Below are positions 17,480-54,581 of a DNA stretch of 64,000 bases, piece after piece. Numbering within the stretch: the first letter of the stretch is position 1; each line of letters starts with the position of its first letter. Source of the stretch: Escherichia coli. GTDB taxonomy: Bacteria > Pseudomonadota > Gammaproteobacteria > Enterobacterales > Enterobacteriaceae. The translations under genes were made by a program, and so were the position numbers. The notes under the pieces are model-generated. The model had not been told where the DNA came from. It made no database searches and saw nothing but the letters and a program-made list of their open reading frames with translations. The stretch is taken from the NCBI RefSeq assembly GCF_016026235.1, contig NZ_CP065613.1. One strand, written 5' to 3'.

Positions 17480-18873
17480 TAGGCTTTCCTTACTGTTTCT
17501 ACAGCGTTTATTTCCTGATAGTCATTCAGTTCGCGGTAATTGGTGCGACGTTTTTCCAGATCGGTCTGGATGCGTTTCATCAGTTCGCGGTCTACTTTCA
17601 GTAGGCGGACGACGCCTGCGGTAATCAGATAGCCCACCCCAGGAATGACGGTAAAGAGCAGTACAATACCGTTAATCGCCGTGGCGCTTTGGGCTTTCGC
17701 ACCGGCATCGTAGCCGTACCATGAGAGCAGAAAGCCCACCATCGCCCCGGCAATGGCCAGGCCCAGTTTGAGGAAGAAAAGGTTACCGGAGAAGCTGATG
17801 CCGGTGATGCGTTTACCGGTTTTCCATTCGCCGTAGTCGTCGACGTCTGCCATCAGCGACCAGTGCAGCGGGGAGGGGATCTGGTGCAGAATGTTGAGCA
17901 CCACAATCATCACCGTGGCGTGCGGATTAAAGAAATAAAAGGCGCAGGAGAAAATTGCCAGCGCGATGTTGGTCCAGAAAAAGACTTTCAGTTTGCACCA
18001 GCGGTCGGTTAACACTTTCGCCAACATACTGCCGATCATCATTCCGACAACGCCGAGGCTAATAAAGAGGGTTGCAAACTGAGTACTCTCACCCATTACC
18101 CAGGTGACATAGTACATGGTTGCCGCCATGCGGATAAATCCAGGGCAGACGTTGCACAAGGTGAGCAGCAGAATGCGCACCCACTGATCGTTTTTCCAGA
18201 CATCTTTAAAATCGTTCTTCATGTCGTCATGGGTTTGTACCGCCGGGCGAATGCGCTCACGAACCGTGGCGAAACAGAACAAAAACATACACATACCGAT
18301 GATTGCCAGCACGGTCATAGCCAGCTGATACCCTTTCGCTTTGTCGCCGCCGCCAAATAGATCCACCATCGGCAATAGCGTCAGCGAGAGCAGAAGGGTA
18401 GCGATGCCCACCATCACAAAACGGTACGACTGGCAGGCCACGCGCTCTTGTGGGTCATTAGTAATCACGCCACCTAACGAGCAGTAAGGAATGTTAATGG
18501 CGGTATAGGTCAGGGAGAGCAGGAAATAGGTAACAAAGGCATAGATAACCTTGCTGCTATAGCTCCATTCTGGCGTGGTAAACATCAGGATGCTGAATAG
18601 CGCGTAGGGGAAGGCAATCCACAATAGCCAGGGACGAAAACGACCATATTTGCTTTGGGTGCGGTCGGCAATGGCCCCCATAATAGGGTCAGTGACGGCA
18701 TCGATAACCCGTACAGAGAGCAGTAATACGCCAACGAGTGCCGGGGCCAGACCAAAAATATCCGTATAAAAATAGTTAACAAACAGCATGATAGCGCCAA
18801 AGATGATGTTGCATCCTGCGTCGCCCATCCCGTAGCCGATCTTTTCTCTTACTGATAATTTACTGCTATTCAT
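17479..18873 (-). CDS. Glycoside-pentoside-hexuronide (GPH) family sugar:cation symporter
   Basis: 464 aa polytopic membrane ORF with MelB/GPH-like N-terminus GYGMGDAGCNIIFGAIMLFVNYFYTD. Confidence 0.75.
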   Translation of the reverse strand: MNSSKLSVREKIGYGMGDAGCNIIFGAIMLFVNYFYTDIFGLAPALVGVLLLSVRVIDAVTDPIMGAIADRTQSKYGRFRPWLLWIAFPYALFSILMFTTPEWSYSSKVIYAFVTYFLLSLTYTAINIPYCSLGGVITNDPQERVACQSYRFVMVGIATLLLSLTLLPMVDLFGGGDKAKGYQLAMTVLAIIGMCMFLFCFATVRERIRPAVQTHDDMKNDFKDVWKNDQWVRILLLTLCNVCPGFIRMAATMYYVTWVMGESTQFATLFISLGVVGMMIGSMLAKVLTDRWCKLKVFFWTNIALAIFSCAFYFFNPHATVMIVVLNILHQIPSPLHWSLMADVDDYGEWKTGKRITGISFSGNLFFLKLGLAIAGAMVGFLLSWYGYDAGAKAQSATAINGIVLLFTVIPGVGYLITAGVVRLLKVDRELMKRIQTDLEKRRTNYRELNDYQEINAVETVRKA

Positions 18874-39992: not shown

Positions 39993-40811
39993 TTAAGCAG
40001 CCATCTGATGATATTTTTCCCTGAAGGCTGCCGGGGAGATATTCCCCAGACGAGAGTGACGACGCTGACGATTGTAGAAAATCTCAATGTATTCCCGTAT
40101 TACTGAGATGGCCTCATTCCGGCTCTTAAAACGATAGTGGCTCAGGCTCTCATTTTTCAGCGTTCCCCAGAAGCTTTCCATCGGAGCGTTGTCGTAACAG
40201 TTACCTTTACGCGACATTGATGTTTTCAGACCAGACTGCTCCTGTATGACCCGGTAATCGTATGCGCAGTACTGTGAACCTCGATCGGAGTGGTGGATTA
40301 GCCCGGCAGGTGGGCGCTGGCTCCTGAGCGCCATAAACAGGGCTTTACCTGTCAGCTCTTTTGTCATGCGCTCTCCCATGGCGTAGCCGACAATTTCGCA
40401 CGTATAAACATCTTTGATGCCAGCGAGGTACAACCATCCCTCCTGTGTGGCAACATACGTCAGGTCCGCCACCCAGACCTGATTTGGTGCTGTAGGAGCG
40501 AACGTCTGGTTCAGCAGATTTGGCGCAACTGGCAGATTGTGGTTCGAGTTCGTAGTCGCTCTGAACTTGCGTTTCTGCTTACAGCGTAGCCTTAGCTCCT
40601 TACGAAGACGTGCCAGTCGGTCACGACCAACGATGATGCCATTCTCTGCCAGCTCCGTCTGGAGCCGCCGGGTTCCATATGTTTCGCGAGTGCGGATATG
40701 TGCCACCTTAATCTCCAGTTTTAGCCGCTCATCACTTTGTTTTCTGTCTGAGGGTTCATGCTGTACCCAGTTGTAATAACCGCTCCTGGATACACCAAAT
40801 ACCCGACACAT
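39993..40811 (-). CDS. IS3-family transposase OrfB (DDE)
   Basis: 272 aa rve-domain ORF. Confidence 0.85.
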   Translation of the reverse strand: MCRVFGVSRSGYYNWVQHEPSDRKQSDERLKLEIKVAHIRTRETYGTRRLQTELAENGIIVGRDRLARLRKELRLRCKQKRKFRATTNSNHNLPVAPNLLNQTFAPTAPNQVWVADLTYVATQEGWLYLAGIKDVYTCEIVGYAMGERMTKELTGKALFMALRSQRPPAGLIHHSDRGSQYCAYDYRVIQEQSGLKTSMSRKGNCYDNAPMESFWGTLKNESLSHYRFKSRNEAISVIREYIEIFYNRQRRHSRLGNISPAAFREKYHQMAA

Positions 40812-40846
40812 CGCTTCAATGGGAAATTGTTGTCGCCATTGTTCGA

Positions 40847-41149
40847 TTAACGCGTATTTTTCAGCGACTCCTGTGCAAAATACGCTGTTGCTTTTTTTAA
40901 TATATCTCGCTCAAGGCGAGCTTCATTTAACGCCTTACGCAGTTGCAGAATTTCAGATTCCAGTTCAGCCACCGTGCGGGAACCAGGAGTACCGAGCCCT
41001 TTTCTGGCGGCGGTAACCCATTGTCCTAAAGTGCCTTCAGGAAGGGATAATCGGGAAGCGCCTTCACTGATCGAAAGTTGATTTTCAAGAACCGTTCTGA
41101 CAGCTTCGGCTTTGAACTCTTTAGAGTAACGTTGGGTTTTTCTGCTCAT
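40847..41149 (-). CDS. IS3-family transposase OrfA (HTH)
   Basis: 100 aa MSRKTQRYSKEFKAEAVRTVLENQLSISEGASRL... Confidence 0.85.
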   Translation of the reverse strand: MSRKTQRYSKEFKAEAVRTVLENQLSISEGASRLSLPEGTLGQWVTAARKGLGTPGSRTVAELESEILQLRKALNEARLERDILKKATAYFAQESLKNTR

Positions 41150-42184: not shown

Positions 42185-42342
42185 CACCTTCAATGGTGGT
42201 CAGTGCGTCCTGCTGATGGCTAAATAGTACGATTTGTACTTTATCGAGTCAATACAAAATGTTCTAAATATAATTAGTTTCTTATAACGCTTTGTATTTA
42301 ATGGGTTTATATTTTGGAAAAAGAAAACCCGACACTAAGGTC

Positions 42343-43768
42343 TAATGCCGATCAGTTAAGGATCAGTTGACCGATCCAGTGGCTGTGTAAGAATCCGGAA
42401 ACGCTCACTTGTTTCCGGATTTTTTTATGCACATTGGACAGGCTCTTGATCTGGTATCCCGTTACGATTCTCTGCGTAACCCACTGACTTCTCTGGGGGA
42501 TTACCTCGACCCCGAACTCATCTCTCGTTGCCTTGCCGAATCAGGTACTGTAACGCTACGCAAGCGCCGTCTTCCCCTCGAAATGATGGTCTGGTGTATT
42601 GTTGGCATGGCGCTTGAGCGTAAAGAACCTCTTCACCAGATTGTGAATCGCCTGGACATCATGCTGCCGGGCAATCGCCCCTTCGTTGCCCCCAGTGCCG
42701 TTATTCAGGCCCGCCAGCGCCTGGGAAGTGAGGCTGTCCGCCGCGTGTTCACGAAAACAGCGCAGCTCTGGCATAACGCCACGCCGCATCCGCACTGGTG
42801 CGGCCTGACCCTGCTGGCCATCGATGGTGTGTTCTGGCGCACACCGGATACACCAGAGAACGATGCAGCCTTCCCCCGCCAGACACATGCCGGGAACCCG
42901 GCGCTCTACCCGCAGGTCAAAATGGTCTGCCAGATGGAACTGACCAGCCATCTGCTGACGGCTGCAGCCTTCGGCACGATGAAGAACAGCGAAAATGAGC
43001 TTGCTGAGCAACTTATAGAACAAACCGGCGATAACACTCTGACGTTAATGGATAAAGGTTATTACTCACTGGGACTGTTAAATGCCTGGAGCCTGGCGGG
43101 AGAACACCGCCACTGGATGATACCTCTCAGAAAGGGAGCGCAATATGAAGAGCTCAGAAAACTGGGTAAAGGCGATCATCTGGTGAAGCTGAAAACCAGC
43201 CCGCAGGCACGAAAAAAGTGGCCGGGACTGGGAAATGAAGTGACAGCCCGCCTGCTGACCGTGACGCGCAAAGGAAAAGTCTGCCATCTGCTGACGTCGA
43301 TGACGGACGCCATGCGCTTCCCCGGAGGAGAAATGGCGGATCTGTACAGTCATCGCTGGGAAATCGAACTGGGATACAGGGAGATAAAACAGACGATGCA
43401 ACTGAGCAGGCTGACGCTGAGAAGTAAAAAGCCGGAGCTTGTGGAGCAAGAGCTGTGGGGTGTCTTACTGGCTTATAATCTGGTGAGATATCAGATGATT
43501 AAAATGGCGGAACATCTGAAAGGTTACTGGCCGAATCAACTGAGTTTCTCAGAATCATGCGGAATGGTGATGAGAATGCTGATGACATTGCAGGGCGCTT
43601 CACCGGGACGTATACCGGAGCTGATGCGCGATCTTGCAAGTATGGGACAACTTGTGAAATTACCGACGAGAAGGGGAAGGGCCTTCCCGAGAGTGGTAAA
43701 GGAGAGGCCCTGGAAATACCCCACAGCCCCGAAAAAGAGCCAGTCAGTTGCTTAACTGACTGGCATTA
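42343..43768 (+). mobile_element. IS4 (1426 bp) with 12-bp target duplication gacactaaggtc
   Basis: Terminal inverted repeats taatgccgatcagttaagga.../...ttaactgactggcatta; identical 12-mer at 42331-42342 and 43769-43780. Confidence 0.88.
42409..43755 (+). CDS. IS4 transposase
   Basis: 448 aa DDE transposase ORF filling the element. Confidence 0.88.
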
Positions 43769-43815: not shown

Positions 43816-44550
43816 TTAACTAAATGTCTCTTCAGGCCACTGGCTGGCGATAACTTTCCCCACAACGGAACAACTCTCATTGCATGGGATCATTGGGTAT
43901 TGTGGGTTTAGTGGCTGTAGAAACACCTGACCACTATCCCTGATCAGTTTCTTGAAAGTAAATTCATCACCACCAAGTCTGGCTATGCAGAAATCGCCGG
44001 GCTCAACAGCTTGCTCAGGGTCAACCAGAATTAACATCCCGTCAGGAAAACTGGGTTTGGAACCTGTTGGTGCGGTCATGGAATTACCTTCAACTTCAAG
44101 CCAAAACGCACAATCACTGGCTTTTTTGGTTGTGCTGACCCATCTCTCCGCATCACCTTTGGTAAAGGTTCTAAGCTCAGGCGAGAACATCCCGGCCTGA
44201 ACATGAGAAAAAACAGGGTACTCATATTGTTTTTTAACGGGGGCAGATGAGTATTCGCCAACAGGTGAAAATGTACCGTCGTGGTTGAATGAGACGTTAT
44301 CAATACCAAGGTATTTAAACACCACACCAATCTCGTCAAGAGATGGATGACGAGATCCGCGCAACCAGTGACCAATTCCACCCTGCGTCATACCAAGCTC
44401 TTCAGCTAACTTCTCTTGAGTTATGCCGAGCTCTTTCATTCTGGATCTAGCCAGTTCATACCATTTCATTTTCATATCCTTATTATTACGCTCTGTACTA
44501 AAACCATCCATGCACAAGATGTATTTTTTGTTTGCATTCCAAAAGTACAT
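43816..44550 (-). CDS. cI: CI-type prophage repressor (HTH_XRE N-domain plus S24 LexA-like C-domain)
   Basis: 244 aa; C-terminal half matches lambda cI ([34 protein letters not shown] ... [10 protein letters not shown]) while the N-terminal DNA-binding domain is unrelated to lambda cI. Confidence 0.85.
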
Positions 44551-44586
44551 ATCGTATTATTGTCTCATGGTTACTATGGAGGGCAT

Positions 44587-44802
44587 ATGAGCAACCTACG
44601 AAAATATCGAGAGTCACTGAATATCTCTCAAACAACACTTGCTAAGGCGGTTGGATGCACACAGGGAGCTATTGGGCATTGGGAATCTGGTCGTCGCTTC
44701 CCAGACCTTAAAACATGCCGCGCTCTTGTTGCATGCCTAAACAAGTTAGGCGCAAAAGTCAGTCTTGATGACGTGTTCCCTCCGGAACACAAAGCCGCTT
44801 AA
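44587..44802 (+). CDS. cro: Cro-like HTH repressor (non-lambda)
   Basis: 71 aa MSNLRKYRESLNISQTTLAKAVGCTQGAIGHWESGRR..., divergent from cI across a ~36 bp operator region. Confidence 0.75.
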   Translation: MSNLRKYRESLNISQTTLAKAVGCTQGAIGHWESGRRFPDLKTCRALVACLNKLGAKVSLDDVFPPEHKAA

Positions 44803-44921
44803 GACATTCCAGCTCTTACACATTCCAGCCCTGAAAAAGGGCATCCAATTAAACCACACCTATGGTGTATGCATTTATTTGCATACATTCAATCAATTGT
44901 TGTCTAAGGAAATACTTACAT

Positions 44922-45290
44922 ATGGTTCGTGCAAACAAACGCAACGAGGCTCTACGAATCGAGAGTGCGTTGCTTAACAAAATCGCAATGCTTGGAACTG
45001 AGAAGACAGCGGAAGCTGTGGGAGTTGATAAGTCGCAGATCAGCAGGTGGAAGAGGGACTGGATTCCAAAGTTCTCAATGCTGCTTGCTGTTCTTGAATG
45101 GGGCGTCGTTGACGACGATATGGCTCGATTGGCACGACAAGTTGCTTCGATTCTCACCAATAAAAACGCCCGGTGTGGCAAACCGAGCGTTCTGAACAAA
45201 TCCAGATGGAGTTCTGAGGTCATTACTGGATCTATCAACAGGAGTCATTATGACAAATACAGCAAAAATACTCAACTTCGGCAGAGGTAA
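44922..45290 (+). CDS. cII: cII transcriptional activator, C-terminus divergent from lambda (possible frameshift)
   Basis: Residues 1-80 match lambda cII (MVRANKRNEALRIESALLNKIAMLGTEKTAEAVGVDKSQISRWKRDW...); the lambda C-terminal EQIQMEF is encoded in another frame. Confidence 0.7.
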   Translation: MVRANKRNEALRIESALLNKIAMLGTEKTAEAVGVDKSQISRWKRDWIPKFSMLLAVLEWGVVDDDMARLARQVASILTNKNARCGKPSVLNKSRWSSEVITGSINRSHYDKYSKNTQLRQR

Positions 45291-46188
45291 CTTTGCCGGA
45301 CAGGAGCGTAATGTGGCAGATCTCGATGATGGTTACGCCAGATTATCAAATATGCTGCTTGAGGCTTATTCAGGCGCAGATCTGACCAAGCGACAGTTTA
45401 AAGTGCTGCTTGCCATTCTGCGTAAAACCTATGGGTGGAATAAACCAATGGACAGAATCACTGATTCTCAACTTAGCGAGTTGACAAAGTTACCTGTCAA
45501 ACGATGCAATGAAGCCAAGTTAGAACTCGTCAGAATGAATATTATCAAGCAGCAAGGCGGCATGTTTGGACCAAACAAAAACATCTCAGAATGGTGTATC
45601 CCTCAAAACGAGGGGGGTTCCCCTAAAATGAGGGATATCCCTCAAAACGAGGGAAAATCCCCTAAAACGAGGGATAAAACATCCCTCAAATTGGGGGATT
45701 GCTATCCCTCAAAACAGGGGGACACAAAAGACACTATTACAAAAGAAAAAAGAAAAGATTATTCGTCCGAGAATTCTGGCGAATCCTCTGACCAGCCAGA
45801 AAACGATCTTTCTGTGGTTAAACCGGATGCTGCAATTCAGAGCGGCAGCAAGTGGGGAACAGCAGAAGACCTGACCGCCGCAGAGTGGATGTTTGACATG
45901 GTGAAGACTATCGCGCCATCAGCCAGAAAACCGAATTTTGCTGGGTGGGCTAACGATATCCGCCTGATGCGTGAACGTGACGGACGTAACCACCGCGATA
46001 TGTGTGTGCTTTTCCGCTGGGCCTGCCAGGACAACTTCTGGTCCGGTAACGTGCTAAGTCCGGCCAAACTCCGCGACAAGTGGACCCAGCTCGAAATCAA
46101 CCGTAACAAGCAACAGGCAGGCGTGACAGCCAGCAAACCAAAACTCGACCTGACAAACACTGACTGGATTTACGGGGTGGATTTATGA
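45250..46188 (+). CDS. O: Replication initiator O (lambda-type)
   Basis: 312 aa, matches lambda O with a 13-aa insertion in the iteron-encoded segment. Confidence 0.9.
   Translation: MTNTAKILNFGRGNFAGQERNVADLDDGYARLSNMLLEAYSGADLTKRQFKVLLAILRKTYGWNKPMDRITDSQLSELTKLPVKRCNEAKLELVRMNIIKQQGGMFGPNKNISEWCIPQNEGGSPKMRDIPQNEGKSPKTRDKTSLKLGDCYPSKQGDTKDTITKEKRKDYSSENSGESSDQPENDLSVVKPDAAIQSGSKWGTAEDLTAAEWMFDMVKTIAPSARKPNFAGWANDIRLMRERDGRNHRDMCVLFRWACQDNFWSGNVLSPAKLRDKWTQLEINRNKQQAGVTASKPKLDLTNTDWIYGVDL
45598..45765 (+). promoter_or_regulatory. ori-lambda: six iteron-like 18-19 bp repeats plus AT-rich region, inside O
   Basis: atccctcaaaacgagggg / ttcccctaaaatgaggga / atccctcaaaacgaggga / atcccctaaaacgaggga / atccctcaaattggggga / atccctcaaaacaggggga then A-rich tract. 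Confidence 0.8.
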
Positions 46189-46886
46189 AAAACATCGCCG
46201 CACAGATGGTTAACTTTGACCGTGAGCAGATGCGTCGGATCGCCAACAACTTGCCGGAACAGTACGACGAAAAGCCGCAGGTACAGCAGGTAGCGCAGAT
46301 CATCAACGGTGTGTTCAGCCAGTTACTGGCAACTTTCCCGGCGAGCCTGGCTAACCGTGACCAGAACGAACTGAACGAAATCCGCCGCCAGTGGGTTCTG
46401 GCTTTCCGGGAAAACGGGATCACCACAATGGAACAGGTTAACGCAGGAATGCGCGTAGCCCGTCGGCAGAATCGACCATTCCTGCCATCACCCGGGCAGT
46501 TTGTCGCCTGGTGCCGGGAAGAAGCATCCGTTACCGCCGGGCTGCCAAACGCCAGCGAGCTGGTTGATATGGTTTACGAGTATTGCCGGAAGCGAGGCCT
46601 GTATCCGGATGCGGAGTCTTATCCGTGGAAATCAAACGCGCACTACTGGCTGGTTACCAACCTGTATCAGAACATGCGGGCCAATGCGCTGACTGACGCG
46701 GAATTACGACGCAAGGCTGCCGATGAACTGACCTGTATGACAGTGCGAATTAACCGTGGTGAGGCGATACCTGAACCAGTAAAACAACTTCCTGTCATGG
46801 GCGGTAGACCTCTAAATCGTGCACAGGCTCTGGCGAAGATCGTAGAAATTAAAGCTAAGTTCGGACTGAAAGGAGCCAGTGTATGA
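46185..46886 (+). CDS. P: Replication protein P (DnaB helicase loader)
   Basis: 233 aa matching lambda P (MKNIAAQMVNFDREQMRRIANN...). Confidence 0.9.
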   Translation: MKNIAAQMVNFDREQMRRIANNLPEQYDEKPQVQQVAQIINGVFSQLLATFPASLANRDQNELNEIRRQWVLAFRENGITTMEQVNAGMRVARRQNRPFLPSPGQFVAWCREEASVTAGLPNASELVDMVYEYCRKRGLYPDAESYPWKSNAHYWLVTNLYQNMRANALTDAELRRKAADELTCMTVRINRGEAIPEPVKQLPVMGGRPLNRAQALAKIVEIKAKFGLKGASV

Positions 46887-47173
46887 CGGGCAAAGAGGCA
46901 ATTATTCATTATCTGGAGACGCACAAGAGCTTCTGTGCGCCGGACGTTGCCGCGCTAACAGGTGCAACAGTAACCAGCATAAATCAGGCCGCGGCTAAAA
47001 TGGCACGGGCAGGTCTTCTGGTTATCGAAAGTAAGGTCTGGCGAACGGTGTATTACCGGTTCGCTACCAGAGAAGAACGGGAAGGAAAGGTGAGCACGAA
47101 CCTGATTTTTAAGGAGTGTCGCCAGAGTGCCGCGATGAAACGGGTATTGGCGGTATATGGAGTTAAAAGATGA
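46883..47173 (+). CDS. ren: Ren (Rex exclusion escape protein)
   Basis: 96 aa matching lambda Ren (MTGKEAIIHYLETHKSFCAPDVAALTG...). Confidence 0.85.
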   Translation: MTGKEAIIHYLETHKSFCAPDVAALTGATVTSINQAAAKMARAGLLVIESKVWRTVYYRFATREEREGKVSTNLIFKECRQSAAMKRVLAVYGVKR

Positions 47174-47243
47174 CCATCTACATCACTGAGCTTGTAACAG
47201 GCCTGCTGGTAATCGCAGGCCTTTTTATTTGGGGGAGAGGGAA

Positions 47244-47522
47244 GTGAACGATAGCTACCGACAGTTTGAAAACTGGTGGTCAAAAGACAAAAGCCAGTTC
47301 ACAGGAGACGATGAATTAAAAGAGTTTGCCTGGGTGATATGGCAGGCATCGCGCTCTGCTATTGAACTGGATATCGACTGGCCCGAATCGAATGACGACT
47401 TTTGGAAAGATGGTGAAGAAGGTGCTTATGCGATGGGTTATGAGGATGGGCGTGACAAAACGGTAATTGCAGTAATGAAAGCCATCAGGGCCGCAGGAAT
47501 CAAAGAAAAGAATTTCGATTAA
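47244..47522 (+). CDS. Hypothetical acidic prophage protein (GTG start assumed)
   Basis: ORF with upstream GGAGAGGG Shine-Dalgarno, inserted between ren and ninB. Confidence 0.4.
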   Translation: MNDSYRQFENWWSKDKSQFTGDDELKEFAWVIWQASRSAIELDIDWPESNDDFWKDGEEGAYAMGYEDGRDKTVIAVMKAIRAAGIKEKNFD

Positions 47523-47653
47523 GCAAATATCACTTCAATAAATCGCTTTTAAGGCATCACAATCGCTCTGTAGCGAGGTAAACGCGTGCAAGGTATTTAT
47601 ATAGCAGCGAGAATGAAAAATGCGTCAGAATGCGTTTGAGGAGGTTTTAAGAA

Positions 47654-47863
47654 ATGAGTTCGTTGACTGAGCTTGTCCGCGCCGACTTTCAGGAGAACAT
47701 TGGTCGTGCAAAGCGGTACTGGTCTGCTTCCAGACTTCCGACTGGCGAGAGACAGAAAACGCCCCTAAGCCACGGAGCTATCCGCGTGACCGCGTTCTTC
47801 GCCGGTTGGTTAAAATCGATAATGATTTTCAGTGTGACAGAATTATCCGGAGTCTGGATTTAA
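47654..47863 (+). CDS. Hypothetical small protein (moron candidate)
   Basis: 69 aa ORF with strong GAGGAGG Shine-Dalgarno 8 nt upstream. Confidence 0.45.
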   Translation: MSSLTELVRADFQENIGRAKRYWSASRLPTGERQKTPLSHGAIRVTAFFAGWLKSIMIFSVTELSGVWI

Positions 47864-47878
47864 AGTGAAGGAGTGAGC

Positions 47879-48175
47879 ATGAGCAAAGTATCACGAGGAA
47901 TGAAAATATCGCTTATTTTCATCCTTAATCCGCATCGTATCTTTTTGGCTTCAGCAGTATGGCTGTCATATTTTGTTTATTGGTTAGCAGATAAATTGGA
48001 TGATTTTGCGAAATGGCTTGAGAATTTTGCGAATGCGAGGTTTGAGTCATGGCCGCTTATCGGAGAGAGGATGTCTGACGAATTAAACCGGTATTACGCG
48101 GATAAGCGCAAGGAGAAGAGCAGGAGGGCAAGTGAAGCAATTATTCCTGCTTCGCAACGAAGCAATCAGAAATAA
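47879..48175 (+). CDS. Hypothetical small membrane protein (moron candidate)
   Basis: ~98 aa with one predicted TM helix (ISLIFILNPHRIFLASAVWLSYFVYWLA) and a basic C-terminus; AAGGAG Shine-Dalgarno. Confidence 0.45.
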   Translation: MSKVSRGMKISLIFILNPHRIFLASAVWLSYFVYWLADKLDDFAKWLENFANARFESWPLIGERMSDELNRYYADKRKEKSRRASEAIIPASQRSNQK

Positions 48176-48599
48176 CGCCATAGACGCCATTCTCTCACTA
48201 CCCATCGACGACAAGTCACCCCACGAAGTCCACGTTAGAGAACCAAAGCGGAGCAATCCTCAAAACCGCCTTATGTGGGCGTTATTGCAGGACGTATCGC
48301 GTCAAGTGCTATGGCATGGTCAACGGCTGGCGCCGGAAGACTGGAAAGACCTGTTCACTGCCCTGTGGCTTAAGACCAAAAAACTGGAGCAACGAAGTGC
48401 GCCTGGTATCGACGGTGGCGTTGTCATGCTTGGTGTGCGTACCAGCAAAATGCGAAAGGCCAGCATGACTGAGCTTATCGAAATCATGTTCTGGTTCGGC
48501 TCAGAGCGCAACGTGCGGTGGAGTGATGACTCCCGGCGAGAGTATGAATGGTCACAACGGAAAGGTAACACGGACAATATGCGAGGGTTGAATGATTAA
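48132..48599 (+). CDS. ninB: NinB-family recombination protein
   Basis: 155 aa; ...NPQNRLMWALLQDVSRQVLWHGQRLAPEDWKDLFTA... parallels lambda NinB (...DQNRKLWACLGDVSRQVEWHGRWLDAESWKCVFTA...). Confidence 0.75.
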   Translation: MKQLFLLRNEAIRNNAIDAILSLPIDDKSPHEVHVREPKRSNPQNRLMWALLQDVSRQVLWHGQRLAPEDWKDLFTALWLKTKKLEQRSAPGIDGGVVMLGVRTSKMRKASMTELIEIMFWFGSERNVRWSDDSRREYEWSQRKGNTDNMRGLND

Positions 48600-49122
48600 G
48601 CATAAATCAGAAACACCAAAAGAAGTTAGAGACTGCTGGCAAACGCCGCTTTGGCTTTTTGATGCACTGGATATTGAGTTTGGATTCTGGCTTGATTCGG
48701 CAGCGAGCGACAAAAACGCTCTGTGCGCTCACTGGCTAACTGAGGCCGACGACGCGCTAAATTCTGAGTGGATAAGCCACGGTGCAATCTGGAATAACCC
48801 ACCGTACAGCAATATCAGGCCGTGGGTGGAAAAAGCCGCTGAGCAGTGCATACAACAGCGACAGACGGTAGTGATGCTTGTGCCAGAGGATATGTCTGTC
48901 GGATGGTTCAGTAAGGCTCTGGAGAGTGTTGACGAAGTTCGCATTATCACTGATGGACGGATTAATTTTATCGAACCATCGACAGGGCTGGAGAAGAAGG
49001 GAAACAGCAAAGGCTCCATGCTGCTGATTTGGCGACCGTTCATCAGTCCTCGACGGATGTTTACTACCGTATCCAAAGCGGCATTGATGGCGATCGGGCA
49101 GGGCGTCAGGAGGGCGGCATGA
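48592..49122 (+). CDS. Phage DNA N6-adenine methyltransferase (Dam-like)
   Basis: 176 aa with NPPY motif (IWNNPPYS). Confidence 0.75.
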
Positions 49123-49295
49123 GACGACAGCGACGAAGTATCACCGACATCATCTGCGAAAACTGCAAATACCTTCCAACGAAACGCTCCAGAAATAAAC
49201 GCAAGCCAATCCCAAAAGAATCTGACGTAAAAACCTTCAACTACACGGCTCACCTGTGGGATATCCGGTGGCTAAGACATCGTGCGAGGAAATGA
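49119..49295 (+). CDS. ninE: NinE
   Basis: 58 aa [58 protein letters not shown], matches lambda NinE. Confidence 0.8.
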
Positions 49296-49338
49296 CAATG
49301 GTGCTCGACAAGCCCCGCCGTTCAGGGCGGGGAAATTG

Positions 49339-49644
49339 TTAAGGATGAGGCTGAATTTCTTCAGGTCGGTATTTTGTTGAGAGATGAGAGATGTCAACTT
49401 CTCTCTCTGCTTTTTCAAGACTCCATGCCATCTGAAGACGAATCCATGAGGCCGGAGTTCCTCCAAGAACGGCGGCGAGACGAACAGCCATTTCAGGAGA
49501 GATTGCCGCATTTCCTGAAACCAGTCGCTGAACAGTGGAAGGCGCAACATCAAGCGCTCTTGCCAGCTCTCTGATCCCAATATTCTGATCTTCCAGAATA
49601 TCCGCAATAATTTCTCCTGGATGAGGGGGGTTAAACATCGTCAT
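49339..49644 (-). CDS. higA: HigA-type antitoxin (HTH_XRE)
   Basis: 101 aa; HTH region IGIRELARALDVAPSTVQRLVSG; immediately downstream of and overlapping the toxin gene. Confidence 0.8.
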   Translation of the reverse strand: MTMFNPPHPGEIIADILEDQNIGIRELARALDVAPSTVQRLVSGNAAISPEMAVRLAAVLGGTPASWIRLQMAWSLEKAEREVDISHLSTKYRPEEIQPHP

Positions 49645-49922
49645 TAATGGTAATCCTCGTAGTTAAGAATATAAGCGTCACCGTCACGAAACTCGAAGGT
49701 GATCCTCCAGTTACCGGAGACGGAGACAGACCACGTATCGGCCCTGTCTCCTTGCAACTGGTGCAGCCTGTAACCGGCAAGGTTAATATCATCAATGATT
49801 TCGGCTTGATCTATCACCTGAAGGCGCATTCTAAGGCGTTTAACATGATTGGGATTTACGCCTGATGCACTTCCAGTTTCAAAGAAACGTTGAAGTCCTT
49901 TGTGTTTCCAGCTTTTTATCAT
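49644..49922 (-). CDS. higB: HigB-type toxin (RelE/ParE superfamily mRNA interferase)
   Basis: 92 aa MIKSWKHKGLQRFFETGSASGVNPNHVKRL...NWRITFEFRDGDAYILNYEDYH, typical HigB. Confidence 0.8.
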   Translation of the reverse strand: MIKSWKHKGLQRFFETGSASGVNPNHVKRLRMRLQVIDQAEIIDDINLAGYRLHQLQGDRADTWSVSVSGNWRITFEFRDGDAYILNYEDYH

Positions 49923-50258
49923 GTTTGTTTCCTGTTGCGTTACGCGAATCATTATAGAGTGTGTTGTGTCATTCGCAACCGTTGGTTTGACAAAAACACA
50001 TATCCGGGGCTATATTCCCTGAACGCCAGCAAATCTGGCGTCGGGATTGGCGTCCCGGATATCGAAACGGTGCATAACCGCGCTGGCGGTTTTTTTATGC
50101 GCTAAGCACAGTCACATTCGCGATTTATGGTGGGCTGTGTGGGGGAGTTGAGAGACTCGCCGGATGTTTCGACCGGTTACGCCAACCCTGCACAGTTCAC
50201 CACCCAGCGATTGGCGTCGCAGGTGGTGAGTTAAAAACCATCGAAACGCGAGGTCGTT

Positions 50259-50945
50259 ATGACTGTTCAGATTTCTGTCAAAAACCTTTCCCCTGTTACC
50301 TATAACCAGATTCCGGTAATCACAACTGAGTTGCTTGCCCGCCTTTATGGAACAGAAACAATCCGTATACAGCAGAATCACCATGAAAATAAATCTCGGT
50401 TTATTGAGGGAAAGCACTTCTTTAAAGCTGTTGGTGATGAACTCAGAAATTTGCGACTAGTTTTAAACGAGTCGCAAAATGAGGTGAAAATCTCTCCCAA
50501 AACCCGCTCGCTCATCCTCTGGACAGAACGAGGCGCAGCCCGCCACGCAAAAATGCTCGAAACCGATCAGGCGTGGGAAGTGTTCGAAAAACTGGAAGAC
50601 TGCTATTTCAGCCAGACTTCGAAAAGCGCAGGTCATCACGAGAAGAAAACCAGCGAGCTTTCTGCAAAAGATGCAAACAGTCTGGTATGGTTGTGGGATT
50701 ATGCCAACCGCTCACAGGCATTATTCCGCGAACTGTATCCGGCGCTAAGACAAATTCAGTCTAACTATTCCGGCAGATGCCACGACTACGGTCATGAGTT
50801 CTCGTATGTTATCGGAATGGCGAGAGACGTTTTAATCAATCACACACGAGATGTTGATATTAATGAGCCAGACGGACCAACGAATCTTTCTGCATGGGTA
50901 AGACTTAAGAACAAAGAATTACCTCCTTCACTACATCACTACTGA
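50259..50945 (+). CDS. ORF6N-domain antirepressor-like protein
   Basis: 228 aa; N-terminal ORF6N-like segment ([36 protein letters not shown]). Confidence 0.55.
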
Positions 50946-51013
50946 CAGATTGCCAACGCAACGACCCAGCTTCGGCTGGGTTTTTTATTGCTGAATTTTC
51001 AATATGAGAGGAC

Positions 51014-51274
51014 ATGACAATGAACGAGCTGATAAATAGCAACGCCATTAAAATGACCAGCATTGAAATCGCTGAGTTGGTGGGTAAGCGTCATGACAAT
51101 GTGAAACGTACCATCGAAACGCTGGTTAAAAGTGGAGTTATCCGGCTTCCTCAAATTGAGGTTTCCGAAAGAATCAATAACTTAGGGTTCAATGTTCAGT
51201 ACGAGCATTACGTCTTCGAAGGCGAACAAGGTAAGCGCGACAGCATTATTGTCGTTGAAGGAGGTGTTGCATGA
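51014..51274 (+). CDS. Rha-family phage regulatory protein (short)
   Basis: 86 aa with Rha-like motif TSIEIAELVGKRHDNVKRTIETL. Confidence 0.55.
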   Translation: MTMNELINSNAIKMTSIEIAELVGKRHDNVKRTIETLVKSGVIRLPQIEVSERINNLGFNVQYEHYVFEGEQGKRDSIIVVEGGVA

Positions 51275-52040
51275 ATGCCGTAATTATTGCCAACGCAGAA
51301 ATCGTGCCGATTGAGTTTAATGGCGAGCGTGTTGTTACGTATCAAATGATTGCTGATATTCACGGGGTTCCAGTAGCCACTATTCAAAATGGCTATGCGC
51401 GAAACTCTGAGTATTTCATAGACAGGGAAGATACATATTTTATTGATTTTCATGAAAATACCTTTAGAAGGGGTTTTGAAATTCCTCCTCGTGGCATGCG
51501 AGTTTTCACTGAATCAGGCTATTTGATGCTGGTTAAAACCCTGCGCGACGAGACGGCGTGGAGAGTGCAACGTGAGCTTGTTCGCAATTATTTTCGTGGC
51601 CAAAAGAAGATAAGTCAGCCTTGCCCGACTTCACAAACCCTGCTGAAGCCGCCAGAGCGTGGGCAAACGAATATGAGCAGAAAGTGAAGCTGGAGCAACA
51701 ACTCGCGATTGCCGCACCTAAAGTTGAGTTTGCCGATCGCGTTGGCGAGGCCAGCGGAATTTTGATTGGAAACTTTGCAAAGGTTGTTGGTATTGGCCCA
51801 AACAAACTGTTTGCGTGGATGCGTGATCACAAAATCCTTATTGCTTCAGGTTCCCGGCGCAATGTGCCAATGCAGGAATATATGGATCGCGGCTATTTCA
51901 CAGTGAAAGAAACAGCGGTCAACACAAATCACGGAATACAGATATCGTTCACCACAAAAATCACCGGGCGTGGTCAACAGTGGCTGACCAGAAAGCTGCT
52001 CGATAACGGAATGCTGAAAGTAACAGGGGAGGCTGCATGA
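51271..52040 (+). pseudogene. Antirepressor (N-terminal DNA-binding plus KilA-C domain) split by a frameshift near 51600
   Basis: Overlapping ORFs 51271-51687 and 51621-52040 in different frames; second part ...DFTNPAEAARAWANEYEQKVKLEQQL... is KilA-C-like. Confidence 0.6.
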
Positions 52041-52399
52041 ATGAGTACAGATTCACGCTTCCATACCCGCCGTCGCTGAACACCTACTGGCGAAGACGGG
52101 GAAGCCGATACTACATCAGCGATAAAGGCCAGAAATACCGAAAAGACGTTCAGCAAATCATCCGCCAACTCAAGTTAGATATTTTCACCAAAGCACGACT
52201 CCGCATCAAAGTCATCGCAGACGTTCCAGACTCCCGCCGCCGCGACCTCGACAACATCCTGAAAGGTTTACTCGACTCCCTTATCCACGCCGGATTTGCG
52301 GAAGACGACGAGCAATTCGATGACATTCGCGTAATTCGTGGCGTGAAAGTACCAGGCGGACGGCTTGGAATAAAAATCACCGAACTGGAGAACGCATGA
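52037..52399 (+). CDS. rusA: RusA-family Holliday junction resolvase
   Basis: 120 aa; LPYPPSLNTYWRRRG ... RRRDLDNILKGLLDSL ... GGRLGIKITELE. Confidence 0.85.
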   Translation: MNEYRFTLPYPPSLNTYWRRRGSRYYISDKGQKYRKDVQQIIRQLKLDIFTKARLRIKVIADVPDSRRRDLDNILKGLLDSLIHAGFAEDDEQFDDIRVIRGVKVPGGRLGIKITELENA

Positions 52400-52584
52400 A
52401 CGCCACAATTCAAACGATACCAGAGCTTCTTATCCAGACACGAGGCAATCAGACCGAAGTGGCGAGGATGCTTTCCTGCGCAAGAGGAACAGTGCTCAAG
52501 TACAACCGAGACAGCAAAGGCGAGCGTCACGTAATAGTTAACGGCGTCCTGATGGTCAAACAGGGCAAAAGGGGAAGACGATGA
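52396..52584 (+). CDS. ninH: NinH-like protein
   Basis: 62 aa ...RGNQTEVARMLSCARGTVLKY..., located just upstream of Q. Confidence 0.65.
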   Translation: MNATIQTIPELLIQTRGNQTEVARMLSCARGTVLKYNRDSKGERHVIVNGVLMVKQGKRGRR

Positions 52585-53099
52585 GCATAAGAGAACTAAA
52601 CCTCACCAAAGAACAGCACGAGTGGCTGAATGGCTGGCTTGAACTGTGGGGCGCATGGGTTTATTCAGGTCGTCTGGAAAAGCGTATGAGCAGCGTAATA
52701 GCGAAGTTCATGGAGAGCGTAGAGCCGGGAAGAGTTATGACAAGGCCAATGTGCAATGATGATGATGGAATGTTGATTTCTCAGGTCGTCGATTCCGTCA
52801 TGTGCATTGACAAGAAAGCCTTTGGCATCCTCCTCAGCTACTACGCTCATGGTTCATCTAAGCGAGCAATTGCATCCTACTATCACGCGACTGCAAAGCC
52901 ACGCAAGATGTGTGGACGTGGTGGCGAGGGATGGAGAAAACCTTCACTGGCAACCTGTAGAAACGAAATTGACGACATCCTGAAAGCGTCGTTATTTGTT
53001 TTGTACCAGCCAATGCAAAATGCTTTCAAAATGCGTAAACGTGTTGAGAAAGTTAAGCATTTTGCTGTTAAAGACCTTGACATGCAATTATCCATTTAG
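52581..53099 (+). CDS. Q: Late-gene antiterminator Q (non-lambda type)
   Basis: 172 aa ORF in the Q position, directly followed by a pR'-like promoter and terminator. Confidence 0.65.
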   Translation: MSIRELNLTKEQHEWLNGWLELWGAWVYSGRLEKRMSSVIAKFMESVEPGRVMTRPMCNDDDGMLISQVVDSVMCIDKKAFGILLSYYAHGSSKRAIASYYHATAKPRKMCGRGGEGWRKPSLATCRNEIDDILKASLFVLYQPMQNAFKMRKRVEKVKHFAVKDLDMQLSI

Positions 53100-53106
53100 C
53101 CATAAT
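53077..53106 (+). promoter_or_regulatory. Putative late promoter pR' (TTGACA-18 bp-CATAAT)
   Basis: Consensus -35 and near-consensus -10 overlapping the Q stop codon. Confidence 0.55.
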
Positions 53107-53120
53107 TAGAAGGTAAGCTG

Positions 53121-53158
53121 CCGTTAGTGACTCTTAAGTTGCAACGGTGGCTTTTTTT
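53121..53158 (+). terminator. Putative tR' (stem-loop plus T7 run), Q-antiterminated
   Basis: ccgttag...caacggtggc followed by ttttttt. Confidence 0.5.
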
Positions 53159-53162
53159 ATTT

Positions 53163-53237
53163 GGGTCAGTCGTATAAAGGTCATTACGGAAGGCTGTTAA
53201 CCTTCTTATCGTGGTTCGAGTCCACGCTGTCCCGCCA
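53163..53237 (+). tRNA. tRNA-like sequence, anticodon GUU (Asn), imperfect acceptor and D stems; possibly degenerate
   Basis: Anticodon arm gaagg-CTGTTAA-ccttc, T arm cgtgg-TTCGAGT-ccacg, 3' CCA; one mismatch in the acceptor stem, weak D stem. Confidence 0.35.
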
Positions 53238-53242
53238 AATAT

Positions 53243-53318
53243 GCTGGTTTAGCTCCAATGGTAGAGCAGTCGCCTTGTAAGCGAATGGGTAGCGGTTCAA
53301 GTCCGTTAACCAGCACCA
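53243..53318 (+). tRNA. tRNA, anticodon UGU (Thr), 76 nt with encoded CCA
   Basis: 7-bp acceptor stem GCTGGTT/AACCAGC, D arm GCTC-CAATGGTA-GAGC, anticodon loop CTTGTAA, T arm AGCGG-TTCAAGT-CCGTT, discriminator A, CCA. Confidence 0.6.
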
Positions 53319-53434
53319 TAACTGAGCCGTAGCCACTGGCTATCCTGAATTCATCAGTGACAGTTACGCTGCGGCCTTCTTTTTCCCTTCCCAATATAAG
53401 AACTACGCCATCCGTTATTTGCGGAGGTGAGGCT

Positions 53435-53650
53435 ATGAAATCCATGGACAAAATATCAACGGGCATTGCCTACGGCACCTCCGCAGGCAGTGCCGGCTAC
53501 TGGTTTTTACAGTGGCTTGATCAGGTCAGTCCATCACAGTGGGCTGCGATTGGTGTGCTGGGAAGTCTGCTTCTGGGGCTTCTGACTTATCTGACGAATC
53601 TGTATTTCAAAATAAGAGAAGATAAGCGTAAGGCTGCGAGAGGTGAATAA
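53435..53650 (+). CDS. S: Phage 21-type pinholin S (dual-start; antiholin from Met1, holin from Met4)
   Basis: [45 protein letters not shown]... matches S21. Confidence 0.9.
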
Positions 53651-54147
53651 TGTCGCCATCATTACGCAAGGCTGTTGCAGTTGCTATTGGTGGCGGGGCT
53701 GTTGCTATAGCATCTGTGTTAATCACTGGCCCAGGTGGTAACGATGGTCTGGAAGGTGTCAGCTACATACCATACAAAGATATCATTGGTGTATGGACTG
53801 TATGTCACGGACACACCGGAAAAGACATCATGCCTGGTAAAACGTATACCGAAGCAGAATGCAAAGCTCTCCTGAATAAAGACCTTGCCACTGTCGCCAG
53901 ACAAATTAACCCGTACATCAAAGTCGATATACCGGAAACAACGCGCGGCGCTCTTTACTCGTTCGTTTACAACGTGGGCGCTGGCAATTTCAGAACATCG
54001 ACGCTTCTTCGCAAAATAAACCAGGGCGATATCAAAGGCGCATGTGACCAGCTACGTCGCTGGACATATGCTGGCGGTAAGCAATGGAAAGGGCTGATGA
54101 CCCGTCGTGAGATTGAGCGTGAAGTCTGTTTGTGGGGGCAGCAATGA
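53650..54147 (+). CDS. R: SAR endolysin R (phage 21-type lysozyme)
   Basis: 165 aa with N-terminal signal-arrest-release segment ([18 protein letters not shown]) and lysozyme domain. Confidence 0.9.
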
Positions 54148-54581
54148 GCAGAGTCACCGCGATTATCTCCGCTCTGGTTATCTGCATCATCGTCCGCCTG
54201 TCATGGGCTGTTAATCATTACCGTGATAACGCCATTACCTACAAAGAGCAGCGCGATAAGGCCACATCCATCATCTCTGATATGCAGAAGCGTCAACGTG
54301 ATGTAGCAGAACTCGACGCCAGATACACAAAGGAGCTTGCTGATGCTAACGCGACTATCGAAAGTCTCCGTGCTGATGTTTCTGCTGGTCGTAAGCGCCT
54401 GCAAGTCGCCGCCACCTGTGCAAAGTCAACGACCGGAGCCAGCAGCATGGGCTATGGAGAAAGCCCAGGACTTACAGCAGATGCTGAACTCAATTATTAC
54501 CGTCTCCGAAGTGGAATCGACAGGATAACCGCGCAGGTTAACTACCTGCAGGAATACATCAGGACGCAATGCCTGAAATAA
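54144..54581 (+). CDS. Rz: Spanin inner-membrane subunit Rz
   Basis: 145 aa [17 protein letters not shown]..., coiled coil. Confidence 0.85.
54337..54528 (+). CDS. Rz1: Spanin outer-membrane lipoprotein Rz1, nested in the +1 frame of Rz
   Basis: Lipobox LVVSAC followed by a Pro-rich segment; exact start uncertain. Confidence 0.65.

Follow-up and report, generated by a model that had tools for sequence, protein, structure and literature searches.

By its sequence, the 176-residue open reading frame (ORF) that lies between ninB and ninE in the window, the whole 64,000-nucleotide stretch of Escherichia coli DNA analysed here, is an ortholog of M.EcoVT2Dam and a member of the small phage "Dam" family (PF05869/TIGR01712). 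Altogether, the analysis argued for a GATC-methylating adenine methyltransferase of the PF05869 family acting as a delayed-early product that completes the methylation of phage DNA; we consider this the likely overall explanation, its timing and its benefit to the phage being the parts that we infer. The gene itself is already known, as a near-identical ortholog of a cloned enzyme sitting in the usual genomic slot and common in E. coli.

The methyltransferase gene, its family and its predicted fold

The gene, its operon neighbours and the sequence elements needed below are as follows, with positions in the window.
47199..47222, plus strand: strong terminator-like hairpin with an 8-bp stem, 6 G-C pairs and a T-run, found by consensus scan where the replication genes give way to the nin region
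48132..48599, plus strand: ninB, Orf-family recombination mediator (PF05772, E 7.7e-48; phrog_72)
48592..49122, plus strand: phage N6-adenine DNA methyltransferase gene, ATG start, intact, 176 aa, taken from the ORF listing
48685..48708, plus strand: codons of a putative AdoMet-binding, motif I-like strand and loop, F32-W-L-D35-S-A-A-S39 (tentative assignment)
48796..48807, plus strand: codons of catalytic motif IV, N69-P70-P71-Y72, within W67-N68-N69-P70-P71-Y72-S73
49119..49295, plus strand: ninE (PF05322, E 7e-44)

The earlier note had described a 176-aa ORF with an NPPY motif between ninB and ninE, and this description proved exact, with the motif at residues 69 to 72 and flanking genes matching PF05772 and PF05322. 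On reading the sequence, the stop of ninB and the start of the methyltransferase gene share 8 nt (ATGATTAA), its stop and the start of ninE share 4 nt (ATGA), and the AGGAGG Shine-Dalgarno of ninE is contained within its 3' end. Since overlaps of this kind with an internal Shine-Dalgarno are the usual signature of translational coupling, the methyltransferase gene appears coupled to both ninB and ninE in a single operon. On the opposite strand, a 174-aa ORF (48729..49253) in all likelihood just shadows the methyltransferase gene.

Classification by profile, the check that the earlier note had proposed, assigned the protein over its full length and above curated cutoffs to two methyltransferase families: PF05869 "Dam" in the Pfam search (E 1.1e-65, 220.9 bits for a cutoff of 28.1, profile positions 1-167 of 169) and the equivalog TIGR01712 "phage N-6-adenine-methyltransferase" in the NCBIfam search (262.2 bits for a cutoff of 97.05, positions 2-165 of 165). 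These two full-length matches place the ORF far beyond chance. The protein also matched phrog_111, "DNA methyltransferase" (E 6e-87), and RefSeq annotates the gene as "phage N-6-adenine-methyltransferase". The only Pfam family reaching E <= 0.01 was PF05869, and the family of E. coli Dam, PF02086, gave no match. Thus, the label "Dam-like" given by the earlier note holds for function and name and fails for ancestry, the protein belonging to the HP1/HP2, T1 and VT2 family (PF05869) and not to the PF02086 alpha class. Its description of a phage-encoded adenine methyltransferase agrees with the PF05869 and TIGR01712 matches and with the lambdoid prophage around the gene.

Among individual relatives, the VT2-Sakai dam product (BAA94133) shares 166 of 172 aligned residues (97%) with the window protein, and the RefSeq protein WP_371832392 from E. 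coli SH21PTE31 shares 175 of 175. From residue 16 onward, 9 of the differences from VT2-Sakai dam are synonymous and 1 is non-synonymous (dN/dS 0.03). T1 Dam (YP_003925) and HP2 dam, both of PF05869, are 35% and 34% identical to the window protein, respectively. Conservation was assessed in an alignment of 30 homologs of 57-94% identity, where D35, A37, P70, P71, Y72, S73, G122, R123, K140 and G141 are invariant and N69, L34 and A38 are at least 90% conserved. When the comparison is made with T1 and HP2 Dam, the unchanged residues are W16, T18, P19, L34, D35, A38, N69-P-P-Y-S73, R123, F126 and K140. Besides NPPY, the window protein carries the family segments W-Q-T-P and L-D-x-A-A.

Since sequence searches of solved structures, with the single sequence as well as with the 30-sequence profile, returned nothing meaningful, we relied on fold comparison. 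The predicted structure (mean pLDDT 74.6, pTM 0.78) has low confidence solely at residues 1-6 and 34-52, the latter being the presumed cofactor-binding loop, and places a short strand at residue 32. Nearly all top Foldseek matches were S-adenosylmethionine (SAM)-dependent methyltransferases, many of them N6-adenine enzymes, with 132-148 of the 176 residues aligned, E. coli Dam being the exception with 108. The best structural neighbour was the mRNA-cap adenosine methyltransferase PCIF1, and the best neighbours include the gamma-class M.TaqI. The methyltransferase fold on which the earlier claim depended is thus predicted, of class I and SAM-dependent, and the model depicts a small single-domain protein devoid of a separate recognition domain. 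In linear order, a putative motif I near D35 is followed by NPPY and by strands 5-7; this arrangement, combined with the presence of M.TaqI and HsdM among the neighbours, suggests a gamma-class-like core lacking a recognition domain, with the position of motif I still putative in this model.

The surrounding prophage

The host flank contains aceE, aceF and lpd (lpd being named by position) and is 99-100% identical to E. coli. A lambdoid prophage extends from ~32.8 kb to beyond the window end. Its minus strand carries a lambda-type integrase, an Ead/Ea22-like gene, an AAA ATPase, an IS3-family element, N, IS4 and cI. On the plus strand, cro, cII, O, P, three small ORFs, ninB, the methyltransferase gene and ninE are followed by antirepressor-type genes, RusA, NinH, Q, tRNA-Asn, tRNA-Thr, holin, lysozyme, Rz, KilA-N and terminase. 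Among these, cro, cII, NinH, holin and lysozyme were called from translations and position, the calls being independent of profile matches. Further features of the prophage are listed below.
32877-33946, minus strand: split lambda-type integrase, with the Arm domain (33551-33946) and the catalytic domain (32877-33569) in overlapping ORFs of different frames
39993-41149, minus strand: IS3-family element, orfA 40847-41149 (HTH_Tnp_1) and orfB 39993-40811 (rve)
42343-43768: complete IS4 of 1,426 bp, transposase 42409-43755, with terminal inverted repeats
49339-49644, minus strand: HigA-like HTH antitoxin (PF01381)
49644-49952, minus strand: HigB-like toxin (PF05015, E 4e-21)
50259-50945: antirepressor-type ORF with ORF6N and P22_AR_C domains
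51014-51274: truncated Rha N-terminus
51271-51687: ORF6N-domain ORF, overlapping in another frame a KilAC/ANT-domain ORF (51621-52040)
53163-53318: tRNA-Asn (GTT) and tRNA-Thr (TGT), between Q (52581-53099) and the holin gene

The prophage looks degraded, with its split integrase, its IS3-family and IS4 insertions and its fragmented antirepressor genes. The integrase break is an apparent frameshift, possibly a sequencing error, and the prophage may be unable to excise. The IS3-family element interrupts the leftward early operon downstream of N and probably exerts a polar effect on the genes for recombination and excision. The ORFs at 51271-51687 and 51621-52040 look like a single frameshifted antirepressor gene. 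No damage is apparent in the cro-to-Q rightward early operon, in the lysis genes or in the terminase. IS4 is flanked by a 12-bp target duplication (GACACTAAGGTC) and separates the 3' end of cI from the putative oL/pL, occupying the slot used for rexAB in lambda; an operator-like sequence at 42223-42242 pairs, as an inverted match, with 44542-44561 beside cro. We considered whether IS4 blocks N expression and rejected it, the insertion lying between cI and the putative oL/pL rather than between pL and N. The pL-N unit thus seems intact, with putative oL and N apparently not separated by IS4, and the insertion gives no reason to suppose that antitermination has been lost. By its position at the nin boundary, the hairpin at 47199-47222 would be a tR2-like terminator, by analogy with tR2 in lambda.

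Directly downstream of ninE, on the opposite strand, the HigB/HigA pair (49339-49952) looks like a moron in the nin region, and a G+C-rich hairpin is present at ~49305-49335 between ninE and higA. In Stx phages, tRNAs and then stx occupy the position of the tRNAs seen here; no toxin genes were found after the tRNAs at 53163-53318. Among complete E. coli genome records, none covers at least 80% of 44000-54200, i.e., no exact copy of the whole early region was found, and the prophage combines known modules into a new mosaic, as is normal for lambdoid phages.

The junction between ninB and the methyltransferase gene (48567-48633) is itself mosaic. Across the final ~30 nt of ninB and the initial ~14 methyltransferase codons it is identical to SH21PTE31, where this sequence comprises the 3' terminus of a homing-type HNH_3 endonuclease gene and the 5' end of dam (L002 3477-4004). 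About 60 nt correspond to an HNH 3' end and a variant dam 5' end present elsewhere in E. coli prophages, unlike the junction of VT2-Sakai. Of the 6 amino acid differences from VT2-Sakai dam, 5 fall in the first ~14 residues (SETPKEVRD against SNTPAHDKD). In SH21PTE31, the HNH gene starts with the first codons of VT2-Sakai dam, and an HNH-annotated gene next to dam is also seen in many other E. coli prophages. By this comparison, the window allele looks like an HNH-bearing allele after loss of the HNH ORF, a loss that would account for the longer NinB (155 aa versus 146-148) and for the divergent N-terminus of the methyltransferase.

GATC specificity and proposed role of the enzyme

The cloning of M.EcoVT2Dam by Radlinska and Bujnicki in 2001 and its GATC specificity are reported here as cited in a methylome paper (PMC6602927), which states that the enzyme "is known to target 5'-GATC-3'"; as later citations convey it, this specificity goes back to restriction-protection assays from 2001. 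T1 Dam methylates GATC (PMC10470545), and the HP2 record, in which the gene is annotated dam, states that its product was shown to methylate in E. coli. In view of the 97% identity to M.EcoVT2Dam and of the reported GATC specificity of T1 Dam at 35% identity, the window enzyme would almost certainly methylate the adenine of 5'-GATC-3'. In the literature searched, we found no SMRT-level data for the VT2-type enzyme.

The earlier note had suggested that the enzyme could alter the host methylome, which now appears unlikely. In a dam+ host (E. coli, Shigella), GATC is already methylated by host Dam, so that no new motif is expected. Moreover, Shiga toxin-producing E. coli (STEC) strain 95NR1, which has two copies of the enzyme, displays just the motifs GATC, CTGCAG and CRARCAG, the last assigned to another enzyme (PMC6602927), leaving no extra motif to attribute to it. 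GATC sites are under-represented in the prophage, with an observed/expected ratio of 0.73 (36000-64000; 80 sites versus 109 expected) compared to 1.02 in the host flank (1-35000), and the ratio is 0.57 within the rightward early operon. The same trend has been described for mobile elements in an E. coli ST131 methylome study (PMC4659465). This under-representation fits GATC avoidance at least as well as reliance on methylation.

We propose the following model. The target adenine would be flipped into a pocket made up of N69-P70-P71-Y72, where strand beta-4 of a Rossmann-type fold ends, the cofactor being held by the N-terminal W16-Q-T-P19 and L34-D35-x-A-A38 segments. Since the gene lies in the rightward early operon, downstream of the terminator-like hairpin, it would be expressed from pR after N-mediated antitermination as a delayed-early product upon induction or infection, and would be repressed in the stable lysogen. 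The enzyme would likely complete GATC methylation on phage DNA whose replication outpaces host Dam, so that progeny genomes would be packaged fully methylated. Such genomes would be protected from GATC-cutting, methylation-sensitive restriction in the next host, dam-negative hosts included, and the consequences of un- or hemimethylated GATC, e.g., MutH nicking, would be avoided, thus supporting burst size. Published observations on other phages are the following: (i) P22 and lambda virion DNA is undermethylated by host Dam (PMC8022706), (ii) deletion of T1 dam leaves GATC unmethylated in a dam-negative host (PMC10470545), and (iii) in a dam+ host, the same deletion results in partial methylation by host Dam and in a burst size of ~60% (PMC10470545).

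Several other explanations had to be weighed against this model, beginning with those that concern what the enzyme modifies and with which partner. A relaxed or non-GATC specificity, with methylation of adenines in many contexts as for M.EcoGII and hence a broad anti-restriction protection, would be favoured by the lack of a target-recognition domain (TRD) and by the existence of non-specific adenine methyltransferases in lambdoid and Stx prophages (PhiOS31_p25, phiP27 L24, M.EcoGI/GII type; PMC7556043, PMC5778455), of which the Serratia phage enzyme PhiOS31_p25 has homologs in "many Escherichia phages", including NP_543076 of phiP27 (PMC7556043). However, we rejected a kinship with the PhiOS31_p25/phiP27 type: phiP27 L24 is a PF01555 protein (E 1e-43), and its BLASTP match to the window protein (E 0.15) covers the PPY motif alone. 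The non-specific enzymes are of the PF01555 beta class and bear no similarity to the window protein, in which the PF01555 N6_N4_Mtase domain with its beta-class N-terminal motif order is absent; moreover, the VT2 and T1 members of PF05869 are reported as GATC-specific, the HP2 member is annotated dam, and the 95NR1 motifs stay at three despite two gene copies. Relaxed specificity is thus highly improbable. A wider range of substrates beyond duplex GATC, such as single-stranded replication or packaging intermediates, non-canonical sites or RNA, is conceivable for a TRD-less enzyme of 176 aa whose best structural neighbour is PCIF1 and whose specificity evidence traces back to 2001, and we give it a slim chance. 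That the enzyme is the modification half of a restriction-modification system with an overlooked nuclease, as the HNH-endonuclease-annotated gene directly upstream of the methyltransferase in the closest E. coli relatives could suggest, has a negligible probability. That gene is missing from the window and is of the HNH_3 type (PF13392), a homing-type family, and a second HNH copy at that locus has an AP2 domain, as phage homing endonucleases typically do; we therefore rejected it as a restriction partner. In the window, the gene is flanked by NinB and NinE, and a scan of gene-like ORFs of at least 100 aa over ~32-58.6 kb, plus several shorter ORFs around the methyltransferase, revealed no restriction endonuclease domain, the only nucleases among the prophage ORFs scanned being RusA, a Holliday-junction resolvase, and terminase. 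The earlier description of the enzyme as an orphan with no adjacent nuclease is thus upheld over this interval.

Other explanations concern when the enzyme acts, or whether it still does. Low expression in the lysogen could supplement host Dam at GATC and thereby stabilise lysogeny or tune phage and host promoters. The Phi24B dam coding sequence (17559-18086; at 528 bp, as long as the VT2-Sakai dam gene) came up when lysogen cultures were screened for expressed genes, and the authors of that screen proposed that phage dam supplements host Dam (PMC3342100); host Dam is reportedly needed for stable 933W lysogeny, according to Murphy et al. 2008 as cited in that paper. This detection does not fit a strictly lytic expression. 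Nevertheless, lysogen cultures always hold spontaneously induced cells, which can explain it, and recovery from such cultures is not proof of expression from a repressed prophage. The gene is also located deep in the rightward early operon, behind the terminator-like hairpin, an extra GATC methylase would find few sites still unmethylated in a dam+ host, and a predicted Dam homolog in a prophage of E. coli EC958, which may be of another family, was silent by RT-PCR (PMC4659465). Hence, we regard a lysogenic or regulatory role as unlikely. A silent passenger, intact merely through recent acquisition and without current function in a defective prophage, is doubtful as well, though it deserves more credit; the split integrase, the IS3-family and IS4 elements and the overlapping or truncated antirepressor ORFs speak in its favour. 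However, the methyltransferase ORF is of full length, retains all family-invariant residues and is identical to copies in other genomes, the cro-to-Q operon, lysis genes and terminase are apparently intact, and a defective integrase does not prevent induction-dependent expression. A silent passenger would concern present usefulness and not identity, and is therefore compatible with the delayed-early GATC methyltransferase that we favour; given the decay of the prophage, the gene may never be used in its present host.

Distribution and comparison with known methyltransferases

At a threshold of at least 95% nucleotide identity, the gene is present in 1,565 of 5,426 complete E. coli genomes (about 29%), and the ninB-dam-ninE block has matches in 418 phage records. 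By tblastn, the protein family was detected in 2,169 of 50,697 phage records (about 4%), with relatives in Stx phages, T1-like phages of Escherichia and Klebsiella, and Vibrio, Lactococcus and Gordonia phages. The locus by itself matters little, as an ordinary family member whose ortholog was cloned in 2001. The family-wide questions are those that still look under-studied, i.e., how GATC is recognised without a recognition domain and what selective benefit lies in duplicating a host activity. We found no structural explanation for the reading of GATC by a 176-aa enzyme, no solved PF05869 structure having come out of the sequence searches, and the T1 knock-out suggests an effect on burst size even in dam+ hosts. 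For the binning or host assignment of prophages by methylation motifs, the enzyme adds no new motif in Dam-positive enterobacteria.

The classical Dam enzymes (E. coli Dam, T4 Dam and DpnM; PF02086, alpha class) have about 260-280 aa and a separate target-recognition domain, which the window enzyme lacks, and just 101-108 core residues align structurally with it. In the window enzyme, by contrast, motif IV follows motif I in linear order and no domain is inserted, its 176 aa leaving no room for one. M.TaqI, HsdM, the MmeI-type gamma-class enzymes and PCIF1 (CAPAM), of 320-1500 aa, bear large recognition or accessory domains and are 12-17% identical to it; PCIF1 acts on mRNA caps. M.EcoGI, M.EcoGII, phiP27 L24 and PhiOS31_p25 are also orphan adenine methyltransferases from lambdoid or Stx prophages and are mostly silent in lysogens, but they are non-specific and of about 350 aa compared to 176 aa, and the L24 gene of phiP27 lies between Q and stx whereas the window gene lies in the nin region.

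Closer to the window enzyme, T1 Dam and HP1/HP2 Dam are the founding members of PF05869, with full-length matches for T1 and HP2, and all are orphans as well. T1 Dam, HP2 Dam and the window enzyme share W-x-T-P, L-D-x-x-A, N-P-P-Y-S and R-x-x-F-I, but T1 Dam reaches 237 aa through a 45-residue N-terminal extension and an insertion. Their settings also differ, T1 being a virulent phage and HP2 dam closing the early operon of a P2-like phage, in contrast to the lambdoid prophage of the window. The nearest known system remains M.EcoVT2Dam with its orthologs of 933W and other Stx phages, like the window enzyme in family, in orphan status and, within one residue, in length. VT2-Sakai dam occupies the same slot between ninB and ninE, the setting differing in that the prophage of the window carries no stx genes and looks degraded.
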